Source: an uncultured Planctomycetales bacterium | Lineage (GTDB): Bacteria; Omnitrophota; Gorgyraeia; Gygaellales; Profunditerraquicolaceae | Length of the DNA stretch: 64,000 bases | Direction: 5' to 3' | Assembly: GCA_964545575.1 (NCBI GenBank) | Contig: CAZJFL010000008.1 | Coordinates: 18,171 to 82,170 of the forward strand | Shown: one piece after another, positions 46,729 to 64,000 of the stretch | How positions within the stretch are numbered: position 1 is the stretch's first letter | How the letters are laid out: every line of letters starts with the position of its first letter | Made by a program: the position numbers and the translations under genes | Notes under the pieces: model-generated | What the model was told of the DNA's origin: nothing | The model's input: the letters and a program-made list of their open reading frames with translations, nothing else | Database searches by the model: none

Positions 46729-46935
46729 ATGATTATCGAGATAGGCATAGTAGCAGGGGATATCTGGCATTTTCTGGATCAGCACGGAGAGGTTACTCTT
46801 TCAGGTTTAATCCGGGGCATAGACAAGAACCGGGACAATGTCCTGATGAGCTTAGGATGGCTGGCCAGGGAAGGGCATGTTATCCTGCAGCAGATAGAAG
46901 GCGATTACAAGGTAAGCTTAAGGAAGAATGTCTAA
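46729..46935 (+). CDS. Small winged-helix protein (DUF2582-like)
   Basis: 68 aa. IWHFLDQHGEVTLSGL...LMSLGWLAREGHV resembles DUF2582 wHTH proteins. Confidence 0.35.
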   Translation: MIIEIGIVAGDIWHFLDQHGEVTLSGLIRGIDKNRDNVLMSLGWLAREGHVILQQIEGDYKVSLRKNV

Positions 46936-47335
46936 CTTAAGGCCCGGTAAAAGAGGGGTAGCGTTATTTATAGTTTTAGGCACGATTTTAGTAGTGGTTA
47001 TCTTAGCTAATATTGTCTTAAATATCATCTTAAGCCAGTCCCGCCTGACCCACCATCAGATCAGCCGCATCCGTGCCTATTACGCCAGCCTCGCCGGCAT
47101 GAACTATGCCCTGGAACAGTTAAGAACCGGGACTTGGGTGTACCACGGAGATTATTGTATAGGTAATATTACTGCCGGCCATTGTTCAGGTTTTCCGCTT
47201 CCGCACGTTGTTAATGATCCGGATATGCCCTATGAGGTAAGGATTCATATTGATGCTCCGGATCCGACTAGGGTGGCTTTTCCCGACGTCGCCCCGCTGA
47301 ATATAACCGTAAATTACACCTCTCCTGCATTGTAA
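46928..47335 (+). CDS. PilX N-terminal domain-like pilus assembly/minor pilin protein
   Basis: RGVALFIVLGTILVVVILANIVLN hydrophobic segment of the PilX_N type. No classical G-FTLIE cleavage motif. Confidence 0.4.
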   Translation: MSNLRPGKRGVALFIVLGTILVVVILANIVLNIILSQSRLTHHQISRIRAYYASLAGMNYALEQLRTGTWVYHGDYCIGNITAGHCSGFPLPHVVNDPDMPYEVRIHIDAPDPTRVAFPDVAPLNITVNYTSPAL

Positions 47336-47528: not shown

Positions 47529-47720
47529 ATGCAAAAACTGATCGACATTGATGAGCTGGCGGATTATCTAAAGCTTAAGAAACAGACCATCTACAACTGG
47601 CTTAACCAGAGGAAGATCACCGGCTTTAAGGTCGGCGGCGTCTGGAGGTTTGACCGTAAAGAGATTGATGCCTGGTTAAACAGCAGAAGGCGCTTAGCTA
47701 AACCCGGAGAAGGCAAATGA
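47529..47720 (+). CDS. Excisionase/MerR-family HTH DNA-binding protein
   Basis: LIDIDELADYLKLKKQTIYNWLNQRKITGFKVGGVWRFDRKEIDAWL matches the HTH_17/Xis-type domain. Confidence 0.6.
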   Translation: MQKLIDIDELADYLKLKKQTIYNWLNQRKITGFKVGGVWRFDRKEIDAWLNSRRRLAKPGEGK

Positions 47721-49270: not shown

Positions 49271-49273
49271 GCG

Positions 49274-49807
49274 ATGAACCTGAATATCAAAATAGAAAGC
49301 CTCAATAAATATAAGAATCGGATTTTAAATAGTGCAATCATTATAATTGCGCTGATTATAGCCGGCAATATCTATAAAAATCAGAGTCTTAAGGCAGGCC
49401 AGCTTCTAGAAAAGAAAGAAATGGAAACAAAAAAGAACGCGGTGCTGGGCAATATCAGCCGCCTGGAGAAGAAATTCAGCGCTTATAAAAAATTCGTGAA
49501 TAAAAAAGATATTTCTGCGGTGATAAATACCATTAACAATATCGCCCGGGAATCCGGGGTCAAGATCAATTCGATCAAACCCCAGCCGGAGCTCGAAGAG
49601 GCCGATTATATTAAATATCCTTTTCTTTTAGCGGTTAACGCCAAAGATTACCATAGTTTGGGCGGGTTTATCAGCAAGTTGGAAAGTTCGCCCGACATTT
49701 ATGCGGTGGAGAATATCAATATCAGGCTTATTACTGAGCAGCAGAAAATAAAAGATATCGATGAAATTGCGGTGGATTTGGCCGTAAGCACTTGTTTACT
49801 AAAATGA
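49274..49807 (+). CDS. pilO: PilO-like pilus assembly protein
   Basis: N-terminal TM helix, coiled coil, and C-terminal ferredoxin-like region. Position between pilMN and pilP. Confidence 0.5.
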   Translation: MNLNIKIESLNKYKNRILNSAIIIIALIIAGNIYKNQSLKAGQLLEKKEMETKKNAVLGNISRLEKKFSAYKKFVNKKDISAVINTINNIARESGVKINSIKPQPELEEADYIKYPFLLAVNAKDYHSLGGFISKLESSPDIYAVENINIRLITEQQKIKDIDEIAVDLAVSTCLLK

Positions 49808-50259
49808 AGAACCCGCTAAATATATCCGGAAAGCATAAAATCGCCGCGCTGCTCTTAATAGTAGCGGTATCATGCGGCGCTTTAATTGCTGCGGGTAATC
49901 CTCTGCAGCCGGCAGAAGAGGTGGTGAGTGTGCCGACAGTAGAATATAAGGCAGGGATGTTACGAGATCCTTTTCAGGGATACAAAGAAGAAAAAGAAAC
50001 CGCTCAGGCAGCGTCGGAAGCTATGGTTAAACCATTGCCTGCGTTGACTGTCCAAGGCATAGTCTGGGGCGGGAGTATACCTCAGGCGATCATCAATAAT
50101 AAGGTATTAAAAGAAGGGGATCTGATAGGCGAAGTCAAGATTACCAAGATTAATAAAGAGGGGATCGAGGTCTTTTATACCGGCAGGCCGTATCTGATTT
50201 CTTCGCCTGCAAATAACGCTATCAGCAGTTTATCGCTGTTAAAGAAAACCAGCCAATAA
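49792..50259 (+). CDS. pilP: PilP-like lipoprotein
   Basis: Lipobox AVSCGA and a C-terminal beta-domain (GIVWGGSIPQAIINNKVLKEGDLIGEVKITKI) typical of PilP. Confidence 0.5.
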   Translation: MFTKMKNPLNISGKHKIAALLLIVAVSCGALIAAGNPLQPAEEVVSVPTVEYKAGMLRDPFQGYKEEKETAQAASEAMVKPLPALTVQGIVWGGSIPQAIINNKVLKEGDLIGEVKITKINKEGIEVFYTGRPYLISSPANNAISSLSLLKKTSQ

Positions 50260-50317
50260 ATAACACCCGGCCATATCGGATTGGCCGGTGCGCCCTTTCT
50301 GGGCAGGGAGGTAAAAG

Positions 50318-51853
50318 ATGAAAAAGATTTTTAGGATAGCGATGATCAGCGTTTTCTTTCTCACCTGCGGCATAGGCAGTTCTCCTGCGGTGCAGGAACT
50401 ATTTGCCCCCGGTCCGGGAGTGGCTATCTCCATGGATTTTAAAGACGCCAGCCTCAAAGACATCTTGAAGATACTCTCCATACAGTCGGGGATGAACTTC
50501 ATTGCCTCGGAGGCAGTCCAGGACAGGCTGGTGACCCTGTATATGGATAAGGTGCCGTTAGAGGAGGCGATGAACCAGATCTTTAGCGCCAATAACCTGA
50601 CTTATGTCTTAAACAAAGAAGGCAGTATATTTCTGGTCAAAGACTGGGGCAAGCCGATGGTGGAGACCGTGACAAAAGTTTTTTACCTGAAGCACGCCAC
50701 GGTTTCTTCTTCTTCCTTAAAAGAGGAGATGAAGAATAATATTTCTTCCACTAGCACTACCACTACAACTACCTCTACTTCTAGCACAGGCGGAAAGTGG
50801 ACGACAGATGACGATGCCGGTATCACTAAGGCAGTGAGGAAGCTGCTTACTCCCCTGGGTAGCTTAATCGAAGATTTCCGCACCAATAGCCTTATCGTTA
50901 CTGATATTCCCAGTCGGATGCCGGTTATAGCGCAGGTTATCACCGCTTTGGATGTGTCTGTACCGCAGGTAATGCTGGAAGTAGAAATACTCGATGTCAG
51001 CAAAAATGCGGTAGACGAGATAGGGTTTAAGTTTGGTCAAACTCCTTTTAGCGTGGCCTTGACCGGCGGTACGGTAGGCGTAGGATTTCCTTTTAAGAGC
51101 TGGAGTAAGATGTTTTCCGCAAATCCCGCAGCAGGTACGCTGGGTACATTAGATATCAATAGCGGTAACAACACCAGTTTATACACCATGGCTTTAGATT
51201 TCTTAAGGACCCAAACCGATACCAAATATTTAGCCCGTCCGCGGATTTTGACTTTGAATAACGAGACAGCTGAGATAAAGATTACCACTAATGAAACTAT
51301 AGGTGTAATTACCACTACTACGGGTACGACACCGTCAGTGGTTACTTATTCCCCTGAGAGGGCTGAGACCGGTGTCAGCTTACGGGTTACGCCGCAGATT
51401 GATTCGGAAACCGGAGAAATCACCATGTTTGTGATGCCGACGGTGAAAGATTCAAATACCAGCACTATCCCTATTGCTTCCGGCAGCACCACCAAATTTA
51501 AAGATCCTGAGGAACGCTCTACCAAGTCTACGGTGCGCGTCAAAGACGGAGAGACGGTGATTATGGGCGGTTTACTCCGTAACCAGCGTACAGACGTAAT
51601 TACAAAACTTCCATTTTTAGGGGATATCCCACTCTTAGGCGTTTTGTTCAGGCACCGGGAGACTTCTCCTAATAAGGAGCGCGAGTTATTAGTTTTTATT
51701 ACTCCGCATATCGTCAAAGATACAAATAAGGCGGCGCTTGTCCAGGCCAAGACCACTCTTTTGGCGCAGCGGGAGCAGGATGTAGTTTCCGCAGGTGACC
51801 GGGAAGCAGTTATCGCCAGCAACCTGGATAAGTTTGAGAGAAAGAACAGGTAA
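50318..51853 (+). CDS. pilQ: Type IV pilus secretin PilQ
   Basis: Signal peptide, N domains (LIVTDIPSRMPVIAQVITALD), a Ser/Thr-rich linker, and the secretin C-domain (VIMGGLLRNQ...PFLGDIPLLGVLFRHRE...LLVFITPHIV). Confidence 0.8.
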   Translation: MKKIFRIAMISVFFLTCGIGSSPAVQELFAPGPGVAISMDFKDASLKDILKILSIQSGMNFIASEAVQDRLVTLYMDKVPLEEAMNQIFSANNLTYVLNKEGSIFLVKDWGKPMVETVTKVFYLKHATVSSSSLKEEMKNNISSTSTTTTTTSTSSTGGKWTTDDDAGITKAVRKLLTPLGSLIEDFRTNSLIVTDIPSRMPVIAQVITALDVSVPQVMLEVEILDVSKNAVDEIGFKFGQTPFSVALTGGTVGVGFPFKSWSKMFSANPAAGTLGTLDINSGNNTSLYTMALDFLRTQTDTKYLARPRILTLNNETAEIKITTNETIGVITTTTGTTPSVVTYSPERAETGVSLRVTPQIDSETGEITMFVMPTVKDSNTSTIPIASGSTTKFKDPEERSTKSTVRVKDGETVIMGGLLRNQRTDVITKLPFLGDIPLLGVLFRHRETSPNKERELLVFITPHIVKDTNKAALVQAKTTLLAQREQDVVSAGDREAVIASNLDKFERKNR

Positions 51854-53574
51854 TGCCTAAAGACAAATACTTAAGATTAGGTGAGATTCTGGTTAATGAA
51901 GGCCTGATTAACGCCACTCAGCTGGAGAAGGCAATCGATATCCAGAAACGCGAGGGTGGCCGGTTAGGCGAGATTCTGGTTAAGTTGGGGATGGTCAAAG
52001 AGGACCGGATGGTGGCGGCATTAGGCAAGCAGTTGAATATCCCCTATTTTTCTCTGGGCACCGGGATGCTTAAGCCGGCGGCGGATCAGGAGCTGCAGCG
52101 GCTGATCCCGCGCGATTTTGCCATCAAGAGTTTCGTGCTTCCTTTGTCGCGCACGCTCAATTCCCTGACCGTAGCTATGGCCGACCCCTTAGACCTTATT
52201 CTCATCGATAACTTAAAGAAAGTTACCGGCTGCGAAGTCAATCCGGTGATTGCTACCCGCTCTGATATTTTGCGCGCGGTAGAAGGATTTTACGGGAAGC
52301 AGGCGATGCTTAAAGACGCGGTAGAGGCTTCTTATGATACCGCTGCTGCACTCACTGCTTTTGAGGAAGCAGAATCCGTTGAGGGAGAATTAAGCTTAGA
52401 CAGGCTGATTGCCCGGGCAGAAGAGGCCCCGGTAGTAAAACTGGTGGATTTGATTATCCGTCAGGCGATTGAAGAGCGGGTCTCGGATATCCATATCGAA
52501 CCTTTTAAAGACAAAATATCCCTGCGTTACCGTCTCGACGGCAAGCTTTACGAAGTGCCTCCGCCGGCTAAACACCTGCACCTGCCGATTATTTCCCGCA
52601 TTAAAATCTTAAGCAGGCTGGATATTGCCGAAAAACGCCTGCCGCAAGACGGTGCGTTTCTGGTAAAAATGGAAGACCGGCCGGTGGATATCCGCGTCTC
52701 TACCATACCCACCATCTACGGAGAGAAAATCGTTTTAAGGATACTGGACCGCTCTAACATCGTATTGGACCTTAATCAGCTCGGCTTCGACCCTAAGCAG
52801 CTGGAACAGATGCGCCGCGCGATCAATACGCCTTACGGCATGGTATTCCTGACCGGGCCCACCGGAAGCGGAAAGACCACTACCCTTTATGCCATACTAA
52901 ACGAAATAAAAAACCCCACCAAGAATATCATCACCATCGAAGACCCGGTAGAATATAAATTAGAAGGGATTAATCAGGTGCAGGTAAAGCCGGAAATCGG
53001 CCTTAGCTTTGCCGCTGCCCTGCGCAGTTTCTTAAGGCAGGACCCGGATATCATGCTGGTGGGCGAGGTGCGCGATTTAGAGACGGCGCAGATCTGTATC
53101 CGTTCGGCGCTTACCGGCCATCTGGTATTAAGCACATTACATACTAACGATGCGCCCTCAGCGATAAACCGGCTGATGGATATCGGTATCGAACCGTATT
53201 TAGTGGCTCCGTCGCTGGTGATGGTGGTGGCGCAGCGGCTACTACGCAAACTCTGCCCGGATTGTAAAGAAGCATATGAACCGCGGCCGGAGCAGTTAGG
53301 AGGCCTGAAACTTAAGGCAGAGCTGGTTTATAAACCCAAAGGCTGCCCTAAATGCAGCCAGGTCGGCTATCGCGGCAGGCTCTGCATTGCCGAGTGCATG
53401 GCTGCCAACGAAAAGATACGCGAATTAATCAATGAGAAGGCTTCATTTCAGAAAATAAGAGAAGTGGCCAGGGCCACGGGGATGCAGACGCTTTATGAGT
53501 CCGCGATTAAAAAAGTCGAAGAAGGGATAACCTCTTTAGAAGAAGCGCTTTCCGTTACTCTGGGGGCAGATTAA
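51853..53574 (+). CDS. pilB: Type IV pilus assembly ATPase PilB (GspE family)
   Basis: N-terminal GSPII_E_N domains, Walker A (GPTGSGKTTT), Asp/His boxes, and a C-terminal tetracysteine motif (CPDC...CPKC). Confidence 0.85.
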   Translation: MPKDKYLRLGEILVNEGLINATQLEKAIDIQKREGGRLGEILVKLGMVKEDRMVAALGKQLNIPYFSLGTGMLKPAADQELQRLIPRDFAIKSFVLPLSRTLNSLTVAMADPLDLILIDNLKKVTGCEVNPVIATRSDILRAVEGFYGKQAMLKDAVEASYDTAAALTAFEEAESVEGELSLDRLIARAEEAPVVKLVDLIIRQAIEERVSDIHIEPFKDKISLRYRLDGKLYEVPPPAKHLHLPIISRIKILSRLDIAEKRLPQDGAFLVKMEDRPVDIRVSTIPTIYGEKIVLRILDRSNIVLDLNQLGFDPKQLEQMRRAINTPYGMVFLTGPTGSGKTTTLYAILNEIKNPTKNIITIEDPVEYKLEGINQVQVKPEIGLSFAAALRSFLRQDPDIMLVGEVRDLETAQICIRSALTGHLVLSTLHTNDAPSAINRLMDIGIEPYLVAPSLVMVVAQRLLRKLCPDCKEAYEPRPEQLGGLKLKAELVYKPKGCPKCSQVGYRGRLCIAECMAANEKIRELINEKASFQKIREVARATGMQTLYESAIKKVEEGITSLEEALSVTLGAD

Positions 53575-54821
53575 TGCCAAAATTTTTTTATTTAGCCAGG
53601 GACAACTCCGGCAAGAAAATCACCGGGCTTGAGGAAGCGATTAATCAAGAAGAGCTGGTGGTCCGGCTGCAGGCAAAAGACCTTTTTGTGGTGACCGTGG
53701 TTTCAGAATCTAAGGAAATCCCTCCTGCATTAAAGCAGGAAGTTTCTCTTGCCCGGCCCAAACATAGGCATTACCGCGTAAGCAGCGAAGACTTAACCCT
53801 TTTCTGCCGGCAGCTCTCCACCATGCTCGGGGCAGGGGTGACTATTTTGAAAAGCCTGGATATTATTTCCCAGCAGGTAGCCAGCCAGAAGTTATATAAA
53901 ATAATCCTGGATTTGCAAAAGCGCATGGAAGCCGGATTAAGCCTCCATGAAAGCATGAGCAAACACCCGGAGGTGTTTTCGGAATTATGGGTTAATTTGG
54001 TAGAGAGCGGCGAAGCCAGCGGGAACCTCGCGCTGATATTAAACCGCTTAGCCGGTTACCTGGAAAGGAACGCCGCTTTCCGCAGCAAGATTATCTCAGC
54101 GCTGATCTATCCGGTGATACTGATGGTTGCCGGGACAGGCGCGCTTTTATTCCTGACGATCAAGATCATTCCTACCTTTGCCGAGTTATTCGCCGGGTTT
54201 AATTTAAAATTGCCTGTGCTGACCCAGATACTGGTGGCAATCAGCGCTTTTATCCGCAAATATATCCTGATTATTATAGGCGTCGTCATCTGCGGCTTCT
54301 TTTTATTTAAAAATTACATCAGGACAAAGGCGGGCTTAAGGAAATACGAAAATTTTAAGTTCAGGCTGCCGGTATTCGGAGAGTTTTTCCGGGGAATCCT
54401 GGTAGAGAGATTTGCTTCCGGGATGTCCACGCTGGTAGAGAGCGGCGTGCCGATACTGTATTCATTAGAGATAAGCGAGCACAGCGTAGGCAGTATTGTG
54501 ATGGCCGATATTATCCGTAAAATCAAGGATGATATCCGCGACGGCAAATCCTTAAGCGAGCCTCTGGAGAAAAGCGGTTTTTTTGAGCCGATGGTGGTGC
54601 AGATGGTCGGTATCGGGGAAGAAATCGGGGAGCTTTCGCAGATGTTTAAGCGGATAGATACTTTTTACCAGGAATATGTGGAAACCTTTTTAGCCCGTTT
54701 TACTTCTTTGTTTGAGCCGATAATGCTCATTTTTATGGGGTTGGTGGTCGGGATGATGGTCATCGGGATGTTTTTGCCAATTTTTCAGATTGCGCAGGTG
54801 GGGACAGTGGGCGGCGGCTAA
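53574..54821 (+). CDS. pilC: Type IV pilus inner-membrane platform protein PilC (GspF family)
   Basis: Two T2SSF repeats, each with TM helices. ATG overlaps the pilB stop. Confidence 0.85.
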   Translation: MPKFFYLARDNSGKKITGLEEAINQEELVVRLQAKDLFVVTVVSESKEIPPALKQEVSLARPKHRHYRVSSEDLTLFCRQLSTMLGAGVTILKSLDIISQQVASQKLYKIILDLQKRMEAGLSLHESMSKHPEVFSELWVNLVESGEASGNLALILNRLAGYLERNAAFRSKIISALIYPVILMVAGTGALLFLTIKIIPTFAELFAGFNLKLPVLTQILVAISAFIRKYILIIIGVVICGFFLFKNYIRTKAGLRKYENFKFRLPVFGEFFRGILVERFASGMSTLVESGVPILYSLEISEHSVGSIVMADIIRKIKDDIRDGKSLSEPLEKSGFFEPMVVQMVGIGEEIGELSQMFKRIDTFYQEYVETFLARFTSLFEPIMLIFMGLVVGMMVIGMFLPIFQIAQVGTVGGG

Positions 54822-56889: not shown

Positions 56890-56939
56890 GGACTGTCCCC
56901 GCCAAAGCTAATCCAAAGTCTAAATAAGGGGACTGTCCC
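56888..56939. repeat. Two REP-like palindromes GGGACTGTCCC
   Basis: AGGGACTGTCCCC and GGGGACTGTCCCT, 27 nt apart, between the last pilin gene and the tRNA. Confidence 0.55.
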
Positions 56940-57005
56940 TGAAAAATGAGGCTATATTTCTGATTTTTATTGTGTTATAATATTTATTTAATATTACGAA
57001 TCCAT

Positions 57006-57081
57006 GGGGCGGTAGTTCAGTTGGGAGAACGCTACATTCGCATTGTAGAGGTCGCGGGTTCAAATCCCGCTCGCTCCACCA
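57006..57081 (+). tRNA. tRNA-Ala (anticodon CGC), CCA encoded
   Basis: Cloverleaf: acceptor GGGGCGG/TCGCTCC with the G3:U70 Ala identity pair, D-arm GTTC...GAAC, anticodon stem CTACA/TGTAG with loop TTCGCAT, T-arm GCGGG-TTCAAAT-CCCGC, and a 3' ACCA. Confidence 0.85.
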
Positions 57082-57088
57082 TTATCTT

Positions 57089-59602
57089 ATGAAAAAATTC
57101 CTTACCATAATTATTCCCCTCACGCTGGTCCTGGCGGTAAATCTCTACTACCGCGCCTTCCCGGTTAATTTCCCGCAGTTAAAAGAGCAAGCCCAGAATA
57201 TCGCCGAAAGCAGGATCTATCAGGAGGCAGCCTTGGTGGTCGATAAAGGCTTTCCCGGTTATTATTCCTCTGCCCGCAACCAGCTGATCAGCGCTTTTGT
57301 TAAGCAGTATAAAAAAGATAAAAAAGCAGCGATAAAAAAGGAGATAGAAGAGACTTATGCTAAATTAAAGGATAATTATCAGGATCCCAGCGGCTCAACT
57401 TATCTGATGGAGCTGGATTGCTGGCACTTTGCAAGATATGTAGGTAATGTTTTACGGCACGGCTATCCCGGGGACAAGATTGTAAACGCCAAGCAATGGG
57501 ATACCTTTGTGTTTGCGCCTTCCGGGACAGCTCTTGCCTGGAATAGCTTCCTTTATTATCTTAGTGCCTTTCTTTATAAAATATTTTCTTTGTTTAAGAA
57601 TGTTACGTTATTCCATTTTTTATTTTATCTGCCGCTGTTTTTTATCCTTATTTTTATTACCCTCTTGTACCTATTTTGTTTTTACCGCTGGGGCAGCATC
57701 GCCGCCATAACCAGTTCTTTATTTATCGGCTTAGCCCCGATTTTTCTCTTTCGTAGTTGTGCCGGCTGGTTTGACAGCGATATCTTACAACTTGCCTTCC
57801 CTTTATTGATTGTCTGGGCGTACCTTAAGGCGCAGGAAGCAGAATCTTTAAAGTTAAGGTTATTGTGGCTTTGTTTTTGCGCCTTCTGGGTCGGCCTATT
57901 TTGTTTTACTTGGCTGAACTGGTGGTTTATCTTTTTAATTATCATATTATATGAAATATATTACCTGGTGAACGCCGCTTCTAATTACCTGCAATATAAA
58001 ATTAGCGATAGTCCGGCGCTGGAAAAACACTTCTTTAGTTTAACGGTTTTTATTTTCTTCTCTTTATTCTGGATTATCCTTTTTTGCGGTTTCCAGCCGC
58101 TATCCGCCCTGTATTCCCAGATCAGAGGAGCGTTGACTCTGAACGATTCTTTATTAACTAGTTCTATCTGGCCTAATGTTTATTCCACGGTAGGGGAATT
58201 AAGAAAAGCGCGGGTGGCAGATATTGCTGGTTCAATAGGAGGGATTGTTTTAATTATCGCCTCCCTGATTTCTATGCTGGCGCTCTTTCTTTATACCTTG
58301 CGCAAAAGAAAGGATGCGGCTGACCATGCTCTTATCCTGATTTTTGTCTTCTGGCTGTTGAGCATGTTTTTTGCATGCTTCAAGGGTGTGCGTTTCAGCA
58401 TGTTTTTACTGATACCCCTGGGCGTATCCTTAGGCTGGGCATTTGCCGAGGGCTACGGATATTTGCAAAAGAGACAGATGAAATTACGGCTTGCCATGGC
58501 GATACTGGTGATGATTAGTTTCGGGGTTAAGTTTCTAATGAATGCCGATTTATCCGCGCGCAGGATCTTTCCGCTGATCGATGATAGCTGGTATAGGGTA
58601 TTGACCACCATAAAGGAAACGACCCCAGAGGACGCGATCATTAATTCCTGGTGGGATTTCGGGGATTGGTTTAAGGTGATTGCCGGCCGCCGGGTTATTT
58701 TTGACGGCCAGAGCCAAAATAATCCTCAAGCTTACTGGATGGCGCGCGTTTTATTAGCGCATGATGAAAAAGAGGCAGTAAGGATTCTGCGCATGCTCAA
58801 TAACGGCGGTAATCGGGCCTTTGAGATCATCAACGCCCAACTTAAAGACCCCTACAGGTCTATTTTTTTGTTAGAGAAGCTGATTTTATCCGATGGGCAG
58901 ATTGCAAAAGAAAGTTTATTAAAATTAATGCCGCCAGCTCCGGCCGAAGAAGTATTAAAACTGCTTAATACTTTGCCCGCCAAGGCATATTTTATCGTTG
59001 ACTACACCATGCAGGATAAAATAACGCCGATTTCTTTTCTGGGGAACTGGGATTTTGCTAAAATCTACATCGCGGACAACCTGAACAGGAAAACAAAGGC
59101 CCAAATCGAGGATTATCTTGAGAGCCTGGGCATAGATGGCAAGTTGGTGCAGAAGCTTTATCAGGAAGCTTCGCTAATCTCTGCCGGCGATTCCGAAAAC
59201 TGGATTTCACGCCGCCTGAGTTTCTATAACCGGTTAGTCGGCGGCCGCCAGAAAGATAATACGGTATTTTTTGATAACGGCCTGGTTTATAATCTCAATG
59301 ACCAGAGGGCTTCTTTATATTCTTATAGAGACTATGGGTATAAGATACCATTTAGCCTATTTAGCGAAGAAGGCGGCAGGTTAAAAGAGATTCTTTATCC
59401 GGATAGTAACCTGGATTTTTCGGTTTTAGTCCTTCGGGATAAGGAGGGTTACCACTCTATTCTGTTAGACCGGGACTTAGCGCCAAGTTTGTTTGTGCGC
59501 TTGTATTTCTTAGGCGGGGAAGGCCTAAAACATTTTAAACTCTTTACAGAGGATAAAATCGGCAATAACTCTATCAGGGTTTTTGAAATCATATGGGAAT
59601 AG
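57089..59602 (+). CDS. Putative STT3/AglB/PglB-family oligosaccharyltransferase
   Basis: N-terminal multi-TM domain with ELDCWHFAR (cf. DPYFNYR, EL1), WFDSD (DxD), and TVGE (TIxE/SVSE-like, EL5). This is followed by INSWWDFGDW (the WWDYG motif) at the start of the soluble C-terminal domain, and by DYTMQDKI (DK-like motif). Confidence 0.55.
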   Translation: MKKFLTIIIPLTLVLAVNLYYRAFPVNFPQLKEQAQNIAESRIYQEAALVVDKGFPGYYSSARNQLISAFVKQYKKDKKAAIKKEIEETYAKLKDNYQDPSGSTYLMELDCWHFARYVGNVLRHGYPGDKIVNAKQWDTFVFAPSGTALAWNSFLYYLSAFLYKIFSLFKNVTLFHFLFYLPLFFILIFITLLYLFCFYRWGSIAAITSSLFIGLAPIFLFRSCAGWFDSDILQLAFPLLIVWAYLKAQEAESLKLRLLWLCFCAFWVGLFCFTWLNWWFIFLIIILYEIYYLVNAASNYLQYKISDSPALEKHFFSLTVFIFFSLFWIILFCGFQPLSALYSQIRGALTLNDSLLTSSIWPNVYSTVGELRKARVADIAGSIGGIVLIIASLISMLALFLYTLRKRKDAADHALILIFVFWLLSMFFACFKGVRFSMFLLIPLGVSLGWAFAEGYGYLQKRQMKLRLAMAILVMISFGVKFLMNADLSARRIFPLIDDSWYRVLTTIKETTPEDAIINSWWDFGDWFKVIAGRRVIFDGQSQNNPQAYWMARVLLAHDEKEAVRILRMLNNGGNRAFEIINAQLKDPYRSIFLLEKLILSDGQIAKESLLKLMPPAPAEEVLKLLNTLPAKAYFIVDYTMQDKITPISFLGNWDFAKIYIADNLNRKTKAQIEDYLESLGIDGKLVQKLYQEASLISAGDSENWISRRLSFYNRLVGGRQKDNTVFFDNGLVYNLNDQRASLYSYRDYGYKIPFSLFSEEGGRLKEILYPDSNLDFSVLVLRDKEGYHSILLDRDLAPSLFVRLYFLGGEGLKHFKLFTEDKIGNNSIRVFEIIWE

Positions 59603-60744
59603 AGAGAACGCAAGATATCGAAGTCTCGGTGGTGCTACCTTGTTTGAACGAAGAACAGGCAGTAGGCGCCTGCATTAAGAAGATTAAAGAAGTATTTGCC
59701 CGAGAGGGAATCAGGGGAGAAATTATTGTTGCCGATAACGGCTCAGTCGACCGCTCAAGGGAGATTGCCGAGAGAGAAGGGGCGAGGGTTGTATCCGAGC
59801 CGCAAAAGGGTTACGGCGCAGCGTATCTTGCGGGGTTAAAAGAAGCCAGAGGAAAATACATCGTCATTGCCGATAGCGATAACTCCTATGATTTTTATGA
59901 CATACCCAAGTTCCTGGTGCCATTAAAGGAAGATTATGATTTTGTGATCGGCTCAAGATTCAAGGGTAAAATCGAGAAAGGCGCGATGGCCTGGCCGCAC
60001 CGTTATATCGGCAATCCCGTTCTTTCCGGAATGACCAGGGTTTTTTTCCATACCCGCCTTTCGGATATTCATTGCGGAATGCGCGCCTTTACGGCTGAAG
60101 CATACCGTAAAATGGATTTGAAGAGCTTGGGCATGGAGTTTGCTACCGAAATGGTGGTGGCAGCTTTACAGAACGGTCTTAAGATACGCGAAGTTCCTAT
60201 TGATTATCATCTGCGCCGGGGTAAATCAAAACTGCTTCCGCTATCCGATGCCTGGCGGCATATCCGTTTTATGCTGCTTTATTCTCCGCTCTGGCTTTAT
60301 TTTATTCCGGGAATGTTGGGGTTCGGCTTAGGGATGTTCATTTTATTGTTGTCGGCCAAAGGCCCGTTCATGTTTTTGGGTCGTTCCTGGGACCTGCATG
60401 TCATGGTTTTTGCAAGTAGCCTCTGCATCCTTTCGTATCAAATCTTAAATCTCGGGGTGTATGCGCATTCATACGCTATTTCCCAGGGTTTTCTGAAAAG
60501 CGAGCCGTTGATGGCGTTTTTTCAGCGTCGCTTCAGCCTTGAGAAGGGCATTCTGCTGGGAGCGCTTTTTTTCTTGTCCGGACTGGTGATCAATATCGTT
60601 ATATTCATAGAATGGTTTTCCAATAGCTTCGGTCCGCTATACAGGATACGCGAGTCTATTTTGGCAATGACTTTTTTGGTTATCGGCCTGCAGACCATCT
60701 TTTCTTCTTTTTTTATCAGCCTTTTATTTTTAAGGAAGAGATAA
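59593..60744 (+). CDS. Polyprenol-phosphate glycosyltransferase (GT2, DPM1/GtrB/ArnC-like, C-terminal TM helices)
   Basis: VSVVLPCLNEE...IIVADNGSVDRS...DSD GT-A fold with a DxD motif, and four C-terminal TM helices as in GtrB. Confidence 0.75.
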   Translation: MGIERTQDIEVSVVLPCLNEEQAVGACIKKIKEVFAREGIRGEIIVADNGSVDRSREIAEREGARVVSEPQKGYGAAYLAGLKEARGKYIVIADSDNSYDFYDIPKFLVPLKEDYDFVIGSRFKGKIEKGAMAWPHRYIGNPVLSGMTRVFFHTRLSDIHCGMRAFTAEAYRKMDLKSLGMEFATEMVVAALQNGLKIREVPIDYHLRRGKSKLLPLSDAWRHIRFMLLYSPLWLYFIPGMLGFGLGMFILLLSAKGPFMFLGRSWDLHVMVFASSLCILSYQILNLGVYAHSYAISQGFLKSEPLMAFFQRRFSLEKGILLGALFFLSGLVINIVIFIEWFSNSFGPLYRIRESILAMTFLVIGLQTIFSSFFISLLFLRKR

Positions 60745-60762
60745 ATAAACCTTATTTCCGCA

Positions 60763-61902
60763 ATGATTTTACTCTTTTTGTTTTATTTATTTTTTATAGC
60801 GGGCCTTTTTTGGGCTTACGGCGGATACCTGTGTTCCATCATCGTCTTTTCTGCAATATTTAAAAAGAAAAATATCATCGATGAATCTTATACTCCCGCT
60901 GCGACGATAATCATACCTACCTACAACGAAGAAGTAGTTATCGCTAAGAAATTAGAGGATATTTTAAGCCAGGATTATCCTAAGGAAAAACTTCAGATCA
61001 TTGTAGTTGATAGCGGCTCGACAGATAAGACCAGGGAAATCGTAAGCAATTATTTCAGATACGGCATAGAATTGGTAGAACAGCCCGAAAGAGAAGGTAA
61101 GGGTGCGGCTATACAGCACGGATTAAATTTTGCCAAAAATGAAATAATAGTAGTTACGGATGCCAACTCGTATTTCCAGTCCGGTACCTTAAAATATTTG
61201 CTAAGAAATTTTTCTGACCCCCGGGTGGGAGGCGTAACAGGAAGGTATTTCGGCAAAAGCATTAAAGATAACGCGCAATCCAAGGGGGGCGGCATATTTA
61301 GGGAATACGAAAATATTTTACGCAAATTTGAGACACAGATCGATTCAGCGGTCAGCCTTTTCGGAGAAATTTTCTCTGCCAGAAGAGAGATTCTAGCCAT
61401 AGACCAAAGGAAATTAACCGAAGATTTCGACAGTTCGGTCTATATCAGGAAAAAGGGGTATAAATTAAGCTTTGAACCTGATGCTTCTGTCTATGAATAT
61501 CTGCCCTATACCGAAAAAGATATAGTCCTGCAAAGAAAAAAAGTAATTATCGGCACAATCCAGACTCTATTGAAATATAAGTCAATGCTGTTTAATCCCA
61601 AGTATGGATTCTATGGGCTGCTTATCCTGCCCGGGCATAAACTGGCCCAGATTTTAAGCCCTTTTTTCCTTACGGGTTTTTTAGCGCTTTCTTTGTTTTT
61701 CTGGAAAGCGTCCCTTTTAATAATTTTTTGCGCGTTAGTTTTTTTAAAAGCCGCTTTAATATTAATAAGGAAAAAAATCTCCATCTTAGGCCTGGTTAAA
61801 TATTTTACGCTGATAAATATTTGTTGTTTATCAGCCTGGAAGGATTATTTGCTGGGCCACTATACAGTAAAGTGTGAAAAGATGCAGGGTTCGCGCGCAT
61901 AA
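60763..61902 (+). CDS. Family 2 glycosyltransferase (membrane-embedded, synthase-like)
   Basis: TIIIPTYNEE...IIVVDSGSTDKT...VTDAN, with N- and C-terminal TM helices. Confidence 0.7.
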   Translation: MILLFLFYLFFIAGLFWAYGGYLCSIIVFSAIFKKKNIIDESYTPAATIIIPTYNEEVVIAKKLEDILSQDYPKEKLQIIVVDSGSTDKTREIVSNYFRYGIELVEQPEREGKGAAIQHGLNFAKNEIIVVTDANSYFQSGTLKYLLRNFSDPRVGGVTGRYFGKSIKDNAQSKGGGIFREYENILRKFETQIDSAVSLFGEIFSARREILAIDQRKLTEDFDSSVYIRKKGYKLSFEPDASVYEYLPYTEKDIVLQRKKVIIGTIQTLLKYKSMLFNPKYGFYGLLILPGHKLAQILSPFFLTGFLALSLFFWKASLLIIFCALVFLKAALILIRKKISILGLVKYFTLINICCLSAWKDYLLGHYTVKCEKMQGSRA

Positions 61903-61903
61903 T

Positions 61904-63061
61904 ATGAGAATCGGCATTGATGCCTTATCTGCGCTACCCGCCAGAAATGACGGGGTAGTGACTTATTTGCGCAATCTTCTTAAAGAGATTGCCCGGCTTG
62001 ATGAAAAGAATGAATATATTTTATTTGTCAGTAAAGAAAATAAGGGCATTTTTCTGCCGCAGGGGGGTAACTTTAAGGAAGTAATCTGTCCGATTAAGGC
62101 ATTGTCCAGGCCGTTGCGCATCTTCTGGGAACAGTTTATTCTGCCATTCCAGATTCATAATCAGCGGATAGATTTGCTTTTTTCTCCCGGCTATACCGCA
62201 CCCATTCTTTGCCAAAAACCATTAGTGCTTACCGTCTATGATACCTATCATTTCAGCTTTACGCGGAGCCTGCCTCAATTCGAATTATTTATCTGGAGGG
62301 TTTTAAATAGATTATCAATCAAAAGAGCAAAAAAGATAATCACGGTTTCCCGCAGTTCGGAAAAAGATATATTGAATATATTCGGGTTAGAAAAAAGCAA
62401 AGTATCAGTTATCTATGCGGCGGCAGATGAGTCATTCTGCTCTGGCCATGCTCAGGAAGATATTAGTGGAATAAAGAAAAAATACGGCATAAAAGATGAT
62501 TTTATCTTAAGCGTAGCCACGATGCGCCCTAATAAGAATATGCGCCGGCTTTTAGAAGCGTTCAATATCTTAAAGACGCGATACCATATTCCGCATCAGT
62601 TGGTATTAGCCGGCGCTATCAATCCGGGGGTTAAAATAAGCGGTAAGCAAGATGCCGTATTGACCGGACATGTCCCGGCGGCAGACCTTCCTTTGCTTTA
62701 CTCCGCGGCGTCGTTACTCGTGCTGCCCTCTATATTCGAAGGGTTCGGTCTGCCGGCTGTAGAGGCAATGTCATGCGGCACGCCCGTAGCTGCCTCCGGC
62801 GTCACCTCTTTACCAGAAATTATCCAAGACGCAGGATTGTTTTTTGATCCTTTTAATACCGAGGATATGGCGAAAACTATTTACAGGCTGTTAAGTGACG
62901 AAGCATTAAGAAAGCGGTTATCCGGGAAGGGCCTAGAAAGAGCAAAGCAATTTTCATGGGGGCAGGCCGCTCGTGAGACTTTAGGTATATTCAAGGAAGT
63001 TATTCAAATCTCCAGAAGGCAAGATAAACAACAGCCTATCATTAAATTCAGGATTAATTAA
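61904..63061 (+). CDS. Family 4 (GT-B) glycosyltransferase
   Basis: EGFGLPAVEAMSCGTPV is the E-x7-E region of GT4. The ORF track starts at a GTG at 61874, but MRIGIDAL is the typical N-terminus. Confidence 0.75.
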   Translation: MRIGIDALSALPARNDGVVTYLRNLLKEIARLDEKNEYILFVSKENKGIFLPQGGNFKEVICPIKALSRPLRIFWEQFILPFQIHNQRIDLLFSPGYTAPILCQKPLVLTVYDTYHFSFTRSLPQFELFIWRVLNRLSIKRAKKIITVSRSSEKDILNIFGLEKSKVSVIYAAADESFCSGHAQEDISGIKKKYGIKDDFILSVATMRPNKNMRRLLEAFNILKTRYHIPHQLVLAGAINPGVKISGKQDAVLTGHVPAADLPLLYSAASLLVLPSIFEGFGLPAVEAMSCGTPVAASGVTSLPEIIQDAGLFFDPFNTEDMAKTIYRLLSDEALRKRLSGKGLERAKQFSWGQAARETLGIFKEVIQISRRQDKQQPIIKFRIN

Positions 63062-64000
63062 ATGAAAGTTTTGCTCATAAATCCCAGCGGCGGCTATAAA
63101 CACGAATATCCTCCGCTCGGGCTGCTTTATATCGCCGCTGTATTAAAAAAATCCGGCCACGAAGTCCTCTTTTTCGATGAAGGAGTGGAATTTAAGAAAA
63201 AAAACAATTTATTGGATTATATCGGCCATTTTAAACCCGCTGCCTGCGGCATAGCTCTTTATACCACTAATCTGTATGAGGCTTTTAAGACAATAGGAAA
63301 TATCAAAAAGAAATATCCGGATTGCGTTATTTTTGTCGGAGGCCCCCACGCAACGGTGTTACCCGAGAAGACGCTGTCTGAATGCCCGGCTATAGATTTT
63401 TTGATCTGCGGCGAAGGCGAGAATACCACGGTAGAACTATTGGATAAAATAAGTAACGGAAACACCATTTCCGGGGTCAACGGTTTATATTACCGAGAAG
63501 GCGGCAATATAAAAAATACGCCTCCAAGGTTATTAATCGATAATCTGGATACCATCCCTTTTCCATCCTATGAATTAACGCGAGGGCTAAATTATAGATT
63601 TGATACTATCAGGGCCGGTAGAAAAGTCGCTACTATTATGACTTCCAGAGGCTGTCCTTATGAGTGCGTTTTTTGCGCCGCCAAGGCCGTATGGAAAAAA
63701 AGTTTTAGAAGGCGTAGCCCCGAGAACGTCGTCAAAGAAATCGCCTGGCTTACGCAAGAGTATGGTTATGATGAATTATATTTTATGGATGATCTGTTCG
63801 CCATAAACAGCAAATGGCTCGATGAGTTTTATTTATTAATGCGAGAATACAATATAAGGCTGCCATGGAAATGCTTAGGGCGCGTAGATTCATTGTCTTA
63901 TTCTGATTATGAGAGGATGGGTAAAAATGGGTGTTACGTTATACAGTTCGGCGTTGAATCCGGCGATAACAGGATACTCTGCGATATCAAGAAAAAAATA
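63062..64000 (+). CDS. B12-binding domain radical SAM protein (3'-truncated by window end)
   Basis: MKVLLINPSGGYKHEYPPLGLLYIAAVL cobalamin-binding domain, then SRGCPYECVFC radical SAM motif. Continues past position 64000. Confidence 0.7.
   Translation, partial: MKVLLINPSGGYKHEYPPLGLLYIAAVLKKSGHEVLFFDEGVEFKKKNNLLDYIGHFKPAACGIALYTTNLYEAFKTIGNIKKKYPDCVIFVGGPHATVLPEKTLSECPAIDFLICGEGENTTVELLDKISNGNTISGVNGLYYREGGNIKNTPPRLLIDNLDTIPFPSYELTRGLNYRFDTIRAGRKVATIMTSRGCPYECVFCAAKAVWKKSFRRRSPENVVKEIAWLTQEYGYDELYFMDDLFAINSKWLDEFYLLMREYNIRLPWKCLGRVDSLSYSDYERMGKNGCYVIQFGVESGDNRILCDIKKKI

Follow-up and report, generated by a model that had tools for sequence, protein, structure and literature searches.

The window, a stretch of 64,000 nucleotides of DNA from an Omnitrophota bacterium, carries type IV pilus genes, a tRNA gene and a putative glycosylation operon in this order:

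46928..47335, + strand: 135-aa protein with a minor-pilin-like hydrophobic N-terminus in its translation (KRG↓VALFIVLG)
47717..54821, + strand: type IV pilus/T2SS-like assembly genes identified with Pfam, encoding a PilM-PilN fusion, PilO, a T2SSB-like protein, a secretin, a T2SSE ATPase (MshEN domain) and T2SSF
54947-55435, + strand: pil1, prepilin-type gene (PF07963 N_methyl)
55407-55838, + strand: pil2, prepilin-type gene (PF07963 N_methyl)
55902-56285, + strand: pil3, prepilin-type gene (PF07963 N_methyl)
56269-56889, + strand: pil4, prepilin-type gene (PF07963 N_methyl at 20.1 bits, just under the cutoff of 21.2)
57006..57081, + strand: tRNA-Ala(CGC) (ARAGORN, Rfam tRNA)
57089..59602, + strand: STT3/AglB-like N-oligosaccharyltransferase (OST), 837 aa, predicted catalytic subunit (ORF, Pfam)
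59593..60744, + strand: GT2a, polyprenol-phosphate glycosyltransferase of the DPMS/AglJ/ArnC type (PF00535, AglJ, 5mlz)
60763..61902, + strand: GT2b, membrane-embedded family-2 glycosyltransferase with PgaC/HpnI-like architecture (PF00535, PF13641, PF13632)
61904..63061, + strand: GT4 glycosyltransferase, 385 aa (PF00534, PF13692, PF13439)
63062..64000, + strand: B12-binding radical SAM protein, N-terminal 313 aa (PF02310 at 73.5 bits, PF04055 at 43.1 bits)

Profile searches place the product of 57089..59602 in the STT3 family, as proposed by a sequence-only reading of its motifs. It matches Pfam STT3 (PF02516, CAZy GT66) over residues 94-455, with 119.5 bits for a cutoff of 24.5 (E 3.4e-34). 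PF21436, the core domain common to STT3, PglB and AglB, is matched with 25.4 bits (cutoff 23), and the C-terminal soluble core domain has a WWDYG-type motif, here WWDFG. The score to the NCBIfam model archaeo_STT3 (TIGR04154, archaeosortase-associated AglB) is 35.5 bits, below the cutoff of 450. The best matches are OSTs; a best match to ArnT or PMT, which would have refuted the assignment, did not occur. Compared with solved structures, the profile gives the best hit to A. fulgidus AglB (8.8e-13), followed by STT3 (1e-7) and PglB (1e-6). Identity to every characterised OST is low (14-20%).

The motif series WFDSD, TVGE and WWDFG described from the translation is present; the spacing D..F.R given for the first motif was wrong and reads D-x3-F-x-R (D110-R116). 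The motifs are ELD110CWHFAR116, GWFD229SD231, TVGE370 and SWWD523FG. In an alignment of 26 orthologous sequences D110, W112, E370, R435, W521, W522 and D523 are invariant; conservation of D229, D231 and R116 is 90% or higher. The acidic residues of EL1, EL2 and EL5 and the LLO-binding Arg are thus all found (D110, D229/D231, E370 and R435), and the motif residues align with SVAGSYDNE of STT3 and with the NRF Arg of AfAglB. A candidate for the DK/MI motif, which completes the pocket for the +2 Ser/Thr, is M641-x-x-K644-x-x-x-I648 in a helix following the strand 633-637. Its assignment is inferred from position only, without coordinates to establish proximity to WWD; K644 is at least 90% conserved and a DPANN relative reads MISKAGVW. 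The membrane domain is predicted to be N-in with 11 clear hydrophobic segments versus the canonical 13 TM, no model coordinates being available. It has an unusually long first external loop (EL1) and is followed by a helix-rich C-terminal domain (~495-837) bearing WWDFG. Judged by segment parity and by the positive-inside loops RKRK and KRQMKLR, the C-terminal domain and all motifs would face the outside; WWDFG is not predicted to be cytoplasmic, which would have contradicted the original proposal.

The three co-directional glycosyltransferase genes and the radical SAM gene reported after STT3 are all recovered with Pfam and NCBIfam. The start of GT2a overlaps the stop of STT3 by 10 nt. GT2a combines a cytoplasmic GT2 domain (PF00535, 99.5 bits) with a C-terminal TM bundle, detected as PF26629 GT2_TM_C in identical and orthologous proteins. 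Among solved structures it is closest to the Dol-P-Man synthase of P. furiosus (5mlz, E 9e-16), with ArnC, aligned over residues 10-290, coming next. GT2 domain, C-terminal membrane domain and similarity to solved members are what defines the DPMS/GtrB/ArnC class, to which GT2a belongs. The top NCBIfam match, AglJ TIGR04182, reaches 160 bits of the 325 required and the dolichyl-phosphate hexose transferase model NF041391 gives 110 bits of 375; GT2a resembles the AglJ class in its presumed working but is not the curated equivalog. It is a candidate for the initiating enzyme of a lipid-linked glycan. GT2b, found also in the related locus L082 (81% identity), is presumably an elongating enzyme; its top NCBIfam match, PgaC_IcaA, scores 105 bits, well under the cutoff.

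Contig L090 is 100% identical to window positions 60404-64000 and prolongs the locus by 5.1 kb. The gene call on it makes ATG 61904 a more likely start of the GT4 gene than GTG 61874, where the mechanical ORF begins. The radical SAM gene starts at 63062 and not at 63064. It is cut by the window end and encodes, when complete on L090, a 741-aa protein in which the B12-radical-SAM part is fused to a class-I SAM-methyltransferase domain, presumed to modify the glycan or a lipid-linked sugar. Past the window end L090 encodes a GT4, a second B12-radical-SAM protein (477 aa) and a Wzx/Polysacc_synt flippase, which makes the operon order STT3, GT2a, GT2b, GT4, rSAM-MT, GT4, rSAM, Wzx flippase. The cluster of L083 is minimal, with STT3, GT2a, one GT2 and a methyltransferase. 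No PglC/WecA-type phosphoglycosyltransferase (Bac_transf, Glycos_transf_4) is encoded in the window operon or in the clusters of L082, L083, L088, L089 and L090, a view confined to the clusters that does not exclude such a gene elsewhere in the genome.

The coordinates confirm that the locus lies immediately 3' of tRNA-Ala(CGC), whose end precedes the STT3 start codon by 8 nt, and of four pilin genes. A scan of positions 56600-57400 yielded neither promoters nor terminators, and no terminator-like site separates STT3 from the tRNA or the tRNA from the pilin genes. The description of the locus as anchored at tRNA-Ala is valid in the window sublineage only: the tRNA is upstream of STT3 in the window, L001 and L082, and in other relatives it lies 2-10 kb downstream of STT3, past the glycosylation genes. 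An island inserted at the tRNA was rejected on the position of the tRNA alone, without integrase or repeat evidence, and we treat the tRNA placement as a local rearrangement and not as an integration site.

PF07963 reaches the cutoff of 21.2 bits in three of the four pilins, and the class-III signal peptide motif G↓F-T-L-x-E is visible in the translations of the gene set (54947-56889); a Pfam search with the 135-aa protein gave no match. In 16 of the 41 loci whose upstream sequence is long enough, STT3 comes directly after a type IV pilus operon. Since the other 25 have no pilus genes upstream, the linkage is frequent and not obligatory. In a clade of 34-36% identity STT3 is found between T2SSF and pilin-PilMNO-secretin, inside a differently ordered pilus operon.

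The STT3 family is present in at least 80 species-level Omnitrophota genomes and is thus phylum-wide and not a one-off, which agrees with the suggestion of a bacterial OST outside Campylobacterota and Desulfobacterota. Independent contigs of about 80 genomes have the arrangement, among them single-cell genomes and a 1.5-Mb chromosome. In 42 of 62 loci STT3 is followed, at no more than 4.5 kb, by a GT2a orthologue (>55% identity). The nearest relatives outside Omnitrophota are DPANN AglB proteins, 29% identical in a full-length alignment (E 1e-112, ~360 bits). The Omnitrophota subfamily may be sister to DPANN AglB, a placement taken from similarity scores without a tree; if so, the pathway would be archaeal-type and not of the Campylobacter PglB type. 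Of the initial label STT3/AglB/PglB-like, AglB is retained, with DPANN proteins closest, and PglB is not, the profile ranking AglB and STT3 before it.

The mature pilins of related loci are rich in potential N-glycosylation sites. N-x-T occurs 133 times in 69 mature pilins compared to 50.9 expected by shuffling, a 2.6x excess that none of 1000 shuffles reaches and that is above expectation in 17 of 17 loci. The control motifs T-x-N, NT, N-x-x-T, D-x-T and N-x-V stay at 0.8-1.14x in the same proteins. N-x-T is at 1.0x in cytoplasmic proteins of the loci and is not enriched (1.12x) in proteins across loci that have only an N-terminal signal or anchor. T2SSE gives 0.13x for N-x-T and 0.33x for N-x-S/T, the secretin 1.1x and 0.87x, respectively, and E. 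coli pseudopilins hold 8 sequons for 7.9 expected. The shuffle test counts orthologues as independent and its z-values are inflated in consequence; the argument rests on the 2-2.6x ratio and the controls. The pilin sequons are all in the exposed globular part and display no preference for Asp or Glu at position -2, where Pro is most enriched; D/E-x-N-x-S/T accounts for 17 of 201 (7.5 expected by shuffling).

The scan recommended at the outset thus detects an excess in pilins of related genomes and none in the four of the window. Mature pil1-pil4 have 2 sequons for 1.9 expected, both in pil3 (NLT and NYT), which makes the pilin link weakest in this genome. The NYT is conserved in 14 of 17 pil3 orthologues, the window included, and the 135-aa protein has three N-x-T (NIT, NIT, NYT) for 0.9 sequons expected. 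The link within this genome would rest on the single conserved pil3 NYT and on this pilin-like protein, judged from translations alone; pil1-pil4 and the 135-aa protein are candidate acceptors. Support for pilin glycosylation is indirect and comes from conserved synteny and from the specific excess of N-x-T that pilins show in relatives.

We privilege the hypothesis, which we consider probable, that the 837-aa gene codes for a catalytically competent STT3-family N-oligosaccharyltransferase heading a lipid-linked-glycan operon in an Omnitrophota bacterium, its activity being inferred. The enzyme set for N-linked glycosylation of exported proteins is apparently intact. GT2a would load a sugar on polyprenol monophosphate at the cytoplasmic face, GT2b and the GT4s would lengthen the glycan, and the B12-radical-SAM/methyltransferase enzymes would modify it. 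The Wzx-type flippase would then move the lipid-linked glycan to the periplasmic face, where STT3 would transfer the glycan en bloc to exported proteins, at the Asn of their N-x-T/S sites and with no need for an acidic residue at -2. Type IV pilin-like proteins would be the main acceptors. Family membership, conservation of the motifs, gene content, synteny, taxonomic spread and sequon bias are observations, and the fold is predicted; enzymatic activity, acceptor identity and a monophosphate rather than diphosphate carrier are inferred, no biochemical or proteomic data existing for any family member. GT2a could alternatively supply a polyprenol-P-monosaccharide to the PMT_2-type GT-C whose gene follows it in 26 of 47 relatives' loci (none follows GT2a in the window). 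In that case the N-glycan would be initiated by an enzyme with its gene elsewhere, possibly on a diphosphate carrier.

A genuine N-OST might have other acceptors in this bacterium, like surface-layer proteins, lipoproteins or periplasmic enzymes, the adjacency to pilins being an inherited gene order without functional coupling. We regard this as unlikely though a serious competitor, for the window pilins lack a sequon excess, a tRNA gene separates them from STT3 in this sublineage, 25 of the 41 testable loci have no pilus genes upstream, and a sequon excess exists in other exported proteins of the window, such as a cyclophilin lipoprotein. However, N-x-T is not enriched in signal- or anchor-only proteins as it is in pilins (1.12x versus 2.6x), the pil3 NYT is maintained in most orthologues and in the window, and STT3 adjoins pilus genes in two differently ordered operons. 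That STT3 instead uses the polyprenol-P-monosaccharide from GT2a directly and adds a single sugar to Asn or a different residue, in the manner of PMT, ArnT or GtrC, appears improbable. At least three further cytoplasmic glycosyltransferases and a Wzx flippase in the operon, and likewise in L082, are typical of en bloc assembly, and the WWD pocket and N-x-T bias fit sequon recognition. To our knowledge all characterised STT3-family enzymes transfer lipid-linked glycans to Asn, which also counts against a single sugar. This reading draws on STT3 and GT2a being the sole strictly recurrent pair, the classic arrangement of a GT-C with a polyprenol-P GT2, and on the existence of minimal clusters like L083.

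The low identity to characterised OSTs, the archaeo_STT3 score far from its cutoff, the unusual EL1 and the helix-rich C-terminal domain would also be compatible with a diverged GT-C that has lost protein N-glycosylation and acts on a lipid, peptidoglycan or polysaccharide. We give this very little credence: catalytic and pocket residues are under purifying selection in more than 26 orthologues and in DPANN (DK/MI being positionally inferred), and such an enzyme would hardly account for the directional N-x-T excess in the pilins nearby. The archaeal character of the nearest non-Omnitrophota relatives could finally reflect an assembly or binning error that put archaeal DNA on a bacterial contig. 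The DPANN proteins share only ~29% identity with STT3, the gene is collinear with bacterial secretin, PilMNO, T2SS and housekeeping genes in the 64-kb window, and the recurrence in about 80 genomes with conserved synteny effectively refutes contamination, whose probability we consider negligible.

The proposed N-glycosylation system can be compared to the archaeal AglB pathway, which N-glycosylates type IV pilins and archaellins in Methanococcus and Haloferax (PMC4371748). Both have an STT3-family OST and, as far as inferred here, a short N-x-S/T sequon, a phosphopolyprenol glycan begun by a DPM1/AglJ/AglK-type GT2 and moved by a MOP/Wzx-type flippase, and acceptors with class-III (prepilin) signal peptides whose sequons lie in the exposed globular part. 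They differ in that the Omnitrophota host is a bacterium, diderm and with a secretin in its pilus machine, for which reason the carrier is presumably undecaprenol and not dolichol, and in that STT3 and GT2a are far under the archaeo_STT3 and AglJ equivalog cutoffs. Uncharacterised AglB proteins of DPANN (Woesearchaeota/Nanoarchaeota) are collinear over the full length, including the long EL1, GG(F/W)xDxD, IWPNV(F/Y)(S/T)TV(A/G)E, INSWWDFG(D/H)WFK, the M-x-x-K-x-x-x-(I/W) helix and the C-terminal beta domain, and a polyprenol-P (PpgS/AglJ-like) GT2 is encoded directly downstream. These archaeal proteins are longer, however, with 1000-1200 aa and an extended N-terminus, often in the form of a PPIase domain. 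Their GT2 consists of two separate proteins, a catalytic one of 220 aa and DUF2304, and the neighbours are geranylgeranyl reductase and heptose-nucleotide genes instead of pili.

Similarity to PglB of Campylobacter and Desulfovibrio is marginal (phmmer E 0.39-0.59 for PglB chains, profile 1e-6). C. jejuni PglB requires Asp or Glu at -2, whereas the candidate sequons here lack it, and the Omnitrophota cluster, from a different lineage, has no PglC-type phosphoglycosyltransferase or bacillosamine genes. A PglB identity of STT3 was rejected on the phmmer values, the absence of a PglC/WecA-type gene within the cluster and the lack of a D/E-x-N-x-S/T preference. PilO/TfpO, PglL and TfpW also glycosylate type IV pilins in the periplasm from lipid-linked donors and are encoded beside pilins. 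PilO/TfpO and PglL, however, are of the Wzy_C/O-antigen-ligase family and modify Ser/Thr, as does TfpW from a different GT-C family, whereas the Omnitrophota enzyme belongs to the STT3 family and the motif in excess is an Asn sequon. GT2a is of the same GT2 class as in the pairs ArnC/ArnT, GtrB/GtrC, Ppm1/Pmt and AglD/AglS; unlike in these, its conserved partner is STT3.

Archaeal kinship and pilus neighbours with an enriched motif in relatives point to a type of pilus modification for which all reports up to now are archaeal. It is an attractive but still tentative idea that an AglB-type module of OST and polyprenol-monophosphate GT2, shared with DPANN by inter-domain transfer, N-glycosylates Omnitrophota type IV pilins. 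If true, this would be the first pilus N-glycosylation in bacteria and the first bacterial OST pathway on a monophosphate carrier, and the surface glycans could matter for contact with hosts or prey in Omnitrophota, which are ultra-small and partly prey on archaea. OST-dependent N-glycosylation in bacteria is classically restricted to Campylobacterota and some Desulfobacterota. An archaeal-type OST spread throughout Omnitrophota would enlarge this distribution and provide an actual example of AglB being exchanged between archaea and bacteria that are both ultra-small. The STT3 phylogeny of Lombard (2016) includes only 'a few bacterial homologues' (PMC4973528), and AglB-dependent N-glycosylation of pilins 'appears to be limited to the archaea' (PMC4371748); were pilins the acceptors, it would extend to a secretin-dependent bacterial pilus.

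Literature searches on Omnitrophota or Omnitrophica with STT3 or oligosaccharyltransferase found no paper, none thus describing this STT3 family, and those on Omnitroph* with N-glycosylation matched work on a commercial fucosidase or taxonomy. Two Omnitrophota genomics preprints of 2023-2026 mention secretion and pilus loci and GT1/GT domains, and no OST. Single-subunit bacterial OSTs accepting plain N-x-S/T are wanted for glycoprotein production in E. coli, to which the family contributes hundreds of diverse candidates with a compact donor pathway.

Two other genes of the window were considered as displaced members of the cluster and discarded: the PMT_2 GT-C at 23993-25642 has no BLAST similarity (E<1e-5) to the cluster PMT_2, and the second B12-radical-SAM gene at 8418-9887 (minus strand) is merely 27-30% identical. 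The cyclophilin lipoprotein encoded at 14769-15311 has 4 sequons for 1.4 expected.

The ORF coding for the putative oligosaccharyltransferase (OST) STT3 lies between prepilin genes and a run of glycosyltransferase (GT) genes, in the following layout:

54947-56889, upstream of STT3: four small ORFs with prepilin-type N-termini (pil1 to pil4)
57006-57081: tRNA-Ala(CGC), called by ARAGORN with Rfam in agreement, the sole tRNA of the window according to ARAGORN
57089-59602: STT3, 837-codon ORF starting 8 bases past tRNA-Ala(CGC)
59593-60744, strand of STT3: GT2a, 383 aa, overlapping the STT3 stop
60763-61902, strand of STT3: GT2b, 379 aa
61874 or 61904 to 63061, strand of STT3: GT4 ORF
63062 to beyond the window end, strand of STT3: ORF of a B12-binding radical SAM protein (B12-rSAM)

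The pilins are preceded by a pilus block comprising a PilM-PilN fusion, PilO, a T2SSB-like protein, a secretin, a T2SSE ATPase with an MshEN domain, and T2SSF. A promoter and terminator scan found neither a terminator-like nor a sigma-70 consensus site between the last pilin gene and STT3. GGGACTGTCCC occurs twice, 40 nt apart, in the interval from pil4 to the tRNA (56889-57005), and a TGTTATAAT box not called by the simple promoter scan is found about 30 nt before tRNA-Ala(CGC). STT3 may be co-transcribed with this tRNA.

The 837-aa protein is an intact STT3-family OST whose active site is predicted to face the periplasm. It matches Pfam STT3 (PF02516) with 119.5 bits over residues 94-455 (E 3.4e-34; cutoff 24.5 bits) and the STT3/PglB/AglB core domain (PF21436) with 25.4 bits over residues 518-598 (cutoff 23 bits). 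The motif series anticipated by the sequence-only reading is present and highly conserved: ELD110-C-W-H-F-A-R116 in the first external loop, GWFD229-S-D231, T-V-G-E370, and S-W521-W-D523-F-G. D110, W112, E370, R435, and W521-W522-D523 are invariant in the orthologue alignment; D229, D231, and R116 are conserved in 90% or more. HMMER aligns GWFDSD opposite the SVAGSYDNE motif of eukaryotic STT3 and G-V-R435-F opposite N-R-F of AfAglB. A candidate third pocket motif resembling a DK/MI hybrid, proposed without a spatial check, is M641-x-x-K644-x-x-x-I648, carried by the helix that follows strand 633-637 and with K644 conserved in 90% or more. Hydropathy delineates 11 clear hydrophobic segments. 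The parity of membrane crossings, deduced from hydropathy and AlphaFold2 helices, places D110, D229/D231, E370, and the entire C-terminal domain on the same side, and the K/R-rich loops MKK, RKRK, and KRQMKLR on the opposite, cytoplasmic side. An AlphaFold2 model computed from the orthologue alignment has high confidence (pLDDT 88.6, pTM 0.84), and its top Foldseek matches are PglB (3.5e-20), STT3A, and AglB; DPY19, AftA, and ArnT are weaker by orders of magnitude. The STT3 match is significant, the best match is neither ArnT nor PMT, and the predicted topology does not put WWDFG in the cytoplasm; the corresponding outcomes that would have refuted the OST assignment did not arise.

Searches of solved structures place the protein in the STT3 family but outside the PglB lineage. 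With a single sequence, phmmer reaches eukaryotic STT3 (E about 1e-5) and the soluble domains of archaeal AglB, PglB being marginal (E 0.4); with a profile of 26 sequences, A. fulgidus AglB (8.8e-13) comes ahead of STT3 (1e-7) and PglB (1e-6). A PglB-type identity was rejected on these rankings together with the closer kinship to DPANN AglB described below.

Domain matches bear out the co-directional glycosyltransferases and radical SAM gene expected after STT3. GT2a has a GT2 domain, accompanied by a GT2_TM_C domain in identical and orthologous proteins. Its best NCBIfam matches are AglJ and haloarchaeal dolichyl-phosphate hexose transferase, both under the equivalog cutoffs, and its best solved relative is the dolichol-phosphate mannose synthase of Pyrococcus (E 9e-16), followed by ArnC. 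By these homologies GT2a is a polyprenol-phosphate glycosyltransferase. Neither it nor the window STT3 is among the curated AglB/AglJ equivalogs. GT2b is a membrane GT2 of PgaC/HpnI-like architecture. The last ORF, cut at the window end, has B12-binding and radical-SAM domains. An ENA contig (L090) retrieved through the exact GT2b protein is 100% identical to window positions 60404-64000 and extends 5.1 kb beyond; there the full gene codes for 741 aa, with a SAM-methyltransferase domain joined to the B12-rSAM part. Next come genes for another GT4, another B12-rSAM of 477 aa, and a flippase of the Polysacc_synt/Wzx type that shares 87% identity with the one in the closest relative's locus. The window and its extension thus unite in one co-directional block a complete set of predicted functions, namely initiation of the lipid-linked sugar, transfer by at least three additional enzymes, modification, flipping, and the OST step. 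The genome region, contig L090 included, has no fewer than three B12-rSAM genes.

Gene neighbourhoods in relatives were compared by tblastn of the window proteins against their loci. Of 62 loci, 42 have a GT2a orthologue (threshold above 55% identity, typically 60-74%) no more than 4.5 kb downstream of STT3, the usual distance being 60 bp or less. B12-rSAM genes are present in 27/47 loci and a PMT_2-type GT-C in 26/47, the common order being STT3, GT2a, PMT_2 GT-C, HpnJ-like B12-rSAM, GT2, and GT4. No annotated cluster has a PglC- or WecA-type phosphoglycosyltransferase. By analogy with Euryarchaeota, the glycan would be built on polyprenol monophosphate with GT2a as the initiating enzyme, a possibility that we put forward tentatively. 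GT2a could instead feed the PMT_2 GT-C encoded beside it in those relatives, the N-glycan beginning elsewhere, on a diphosphate carrier.

The B12-rSAM of the relatives' clusters is a 476-aa protein (8970-10400 in locus L034, 12280-13710 in L044, and in 25 other loci) that aligns to the HpnJ model along its whole length, scoring 364 bits (cutoff 577). HpnJ is a hopanoid-associated radical SAM enzyme converting a lipid-linked glucosamine to a cyclitol, and the resemblance suggests that a lipid-linked sugar may undergo ring chemistry here. A B12-rSAM of 489 aa encoded at 8418-9887 (- strand) of the window is 27-30% identical to this protein. In a 58%-identity relative (L083/L084, 12614-12928), a gene between STT3 and GT2a codes for 104 aa that match 23S_rRNA_IVP and, faintly, bAvd; bAvd is an accessory protein of diversity-generating retroelements.

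Of the 41 loci whose upstream sequence is long enough, 16 have the pilus block from PilMN, PilO, and secretin to T2SSE, T2SSF, and pilins immediately before STT3. A distant clade (34-36% identity; L066, L069, L076) has the order three T2SSE, T2SSF, STT3, pilin, PilM, PilN, PilO, T2SSB-like, and secretin. The association of STT3 with pilus genes is therefore kept in two different operon arrangements. Anchoring of the locus at tRNA-Ala, as first proposed, holds for the window's sublineage, the only one where tRNA-Ala(CGC) separates pilins and STT3, but not for most relatives, where the tRNA lies downstream of the glycosylation genes.

Pilins as acceptors were assessed with 69 pilin-like proteins from 17 loci, all encoded between T2SSF and STT3 and taken without their leader peptides.

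Sequon (N-x-S/T) counts, observed versus expected from per-protein shuffles
Pilins, N-x-S/T: 201 versus 94.5 (2.1x)
Pilins, N-x-T: 134 versus 50.4 (2.66x)
Pilins, N-x-S: 67 versus 43.3 (1.55x)
Pilins, globular part only, N-x-T: 133 versus 50.9 (2.6x)
E. coli K-12 pseudopilins, N-x-S/T: 8 versus 7.9 (1.0x)

None of 1000 shuffles attains the N-x-T count of the globular part, and N-x-T exceeds expectation in 17/17 loci. The control motifs T-x-N, S-x-N, adjacent NT, N-x-x-T, D-x-T, Q-x-T, N-x-V, and N-x-A stay at 0.68-1.18x. N-x-S/T ratios in the same loci are 0.33x for T2SSE, 0.73x for T2SSF, 0.87x for the secretin, and about 1x for STT3 and GT2a. Over 970 ORFs of all loci, N-x-T stands at 1.00x in proteins without transmembrane segments, 0.99x in those with several, 1.12x in those limited to a signal or anchor at the N-terminus, and 2.61x in the pilin-like class. 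The first 25 mature pilin residues have no sequons, and no Asp/Glu preference is found at position -2 of pilin sequons. Sequon positions are partly conserved, NYT being present in 14/17 sequences of the pil3 orthogroup and others being lineage-specific. The bias depends on motif direction, is stronger for Thr than for Ser, and is pilin-specific, a pattern expected if these proteins were selected as N-glycosylation acceptors. The z-scores of the shuffle test overstate its significance because orthologues are not independent. The excess appears across related loci but not in the window's own four pilins, whose mature parts contain two sequons in all, the number expected: NLT and the conserved NYT, each in pil3. 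A 135-aa minor-pilin-like protein encoded upstream of PilMN (46928-47335) has three N-x-T sites.

We infer that the STT3 enzyme is probably active on N-x-T/S. We lean towards pilins as its major acceptors at the level of the family, and hold this with less confidence for the present genome. A possible non-pilin acceptor is an exported cyclophilin-type PPIase with a lipoprotein-like signal (14769-15311, + strand), which has NQT, NFT, NGT, and NGS, four sites versus 1.4 expected.

The enzyme is widespread in its phylum. Protein searches return hundreds of full-length homologues (47-81% identity); all named ones are from 'Candidatus Omnitrophota/Omnitrophica', annotated as 'STT3 domain-containing protein' or 'hypothetical', so that the gene itself was not unseen. 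When one genome was scanned for each GTDB species, 93 stretches were confirmed and 80 loci returned. Nearly all of these loci come from Omnitrophota, as MAGs, single-cell genomes, and one chromosome of 1.5 Mb; the few with other bin labels fall in the same identity range. Four Omnitrophota genomes have two STT3 paralogues on different contigs (L033/L053, L014/L059, L022/L035, L011/L067), typically one with the GT2a cluster and the other without.

An exhaustive HMMER search gives 934 clusters at 50% identity (E<1e-30). Among the best 150 representatives, 66 are nearer the window protein and 84 nearer a set of 900-1200-aa proteins, whose named members are from Woesearchaeota, Nanoarchaeota, or 'DPANN group' MAGs. 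One DPANN protein aligns end to end with the window STT3 (29% identity, E 1e-112), including the long EL1, all motifs, the M-x-x-K helix, and the C-terminal beta domain; no characterised OST exceeds 50 bits. In two DPANN loci a geranylgeranyl-reductase family gene precedes the OST, which is followed directly by a PpgS/AglJ-like GT2, 33% identical to the GT2a catalytic domain, and a DUF2304 protein. The order in locus L085 and on a 400-kb JGI contig is GG-reductase, AglB, PpgS-like GT2, DUF2304, GT9, and heptose-nucleotide genes. These alignments and the conserved OST-GT2 pair suggest a separate subfamily of STT3 that unites the enzymes of Omnitrophota and DPANN archaea and retains the pairing of the OST with a polyprenol-phosphate GT2. 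The direction of transfer is undetermined because there is no rooted tree. Many AglB homologues of Woesearchaeota and Nanoarchaeota (1000-1200 aa; P0298, P0301, P0309, P0356, P0385, and others) have an N-terminal rotamase (PF00639/PF13145/PF13616) or FKBP (PF00254) domain fused to the OST, PPIase families different from that of the window's cyclophilin-type protein.

The system can be likened to the archaeal Agl pathway, in which archaellins and type IV pilins are N-glycosylated. AglB-dependent pilin N-glycosylation is seemingly confined to archaea, bacterial pilins being O-glycosylated (review, PMC4371748), and a three-domain STT3 phylogeny found few bacterial homologues (Lombard 2016, PMC4973528). 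Full-text literature searches found no paper tying Omnitrophota to STT3 or oligosaccharyltransferases, and two recent Omnitrophota genomics preprints make no mention of an OST system. The interest of the locus, its function being inferred, lies in the phylum-wide spread, the kinship to DPANN AglB, a donor chemistry likely distinct from that of PglB, and the pilin link.

Several other genes of the window deserve mention. Positions 23259-26019 (+ strand) code in order for a NodB-type polysaccharide deacetylase, a 549-aa PMT_2/ArnT-like protein, and a 4HBT thioesterase, which might form an ArnD/ArnT-like lipid modification module. The PMT_2/ArnT-like protein is a second GT-C predicted to use lipid-linked sugars; BLAST finds no relation between it and the PMT_2 proteins of the relatives' STT3 clusters. 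The membrane H+-pyrophosphatase (26773-28875, + strand, 898 bits) and a CHAT-protease-TPR protein (30960-33161, + strand) are ordinary context genes. An EF-G paralogue of 1023 aa (17739-20810, + strand) has its EF-G domains from residue 331, preceded by an N-terminal transmembrane helix, a K/E-rich coiled coil of about 250 aa, and a P/E-rich linker. Just upstream, positions 17313-17685 match the Rfam cspA-thermoregulator (80 versus a threshold of 78 bits), a similarity that an A-rich leader may produce by chance.
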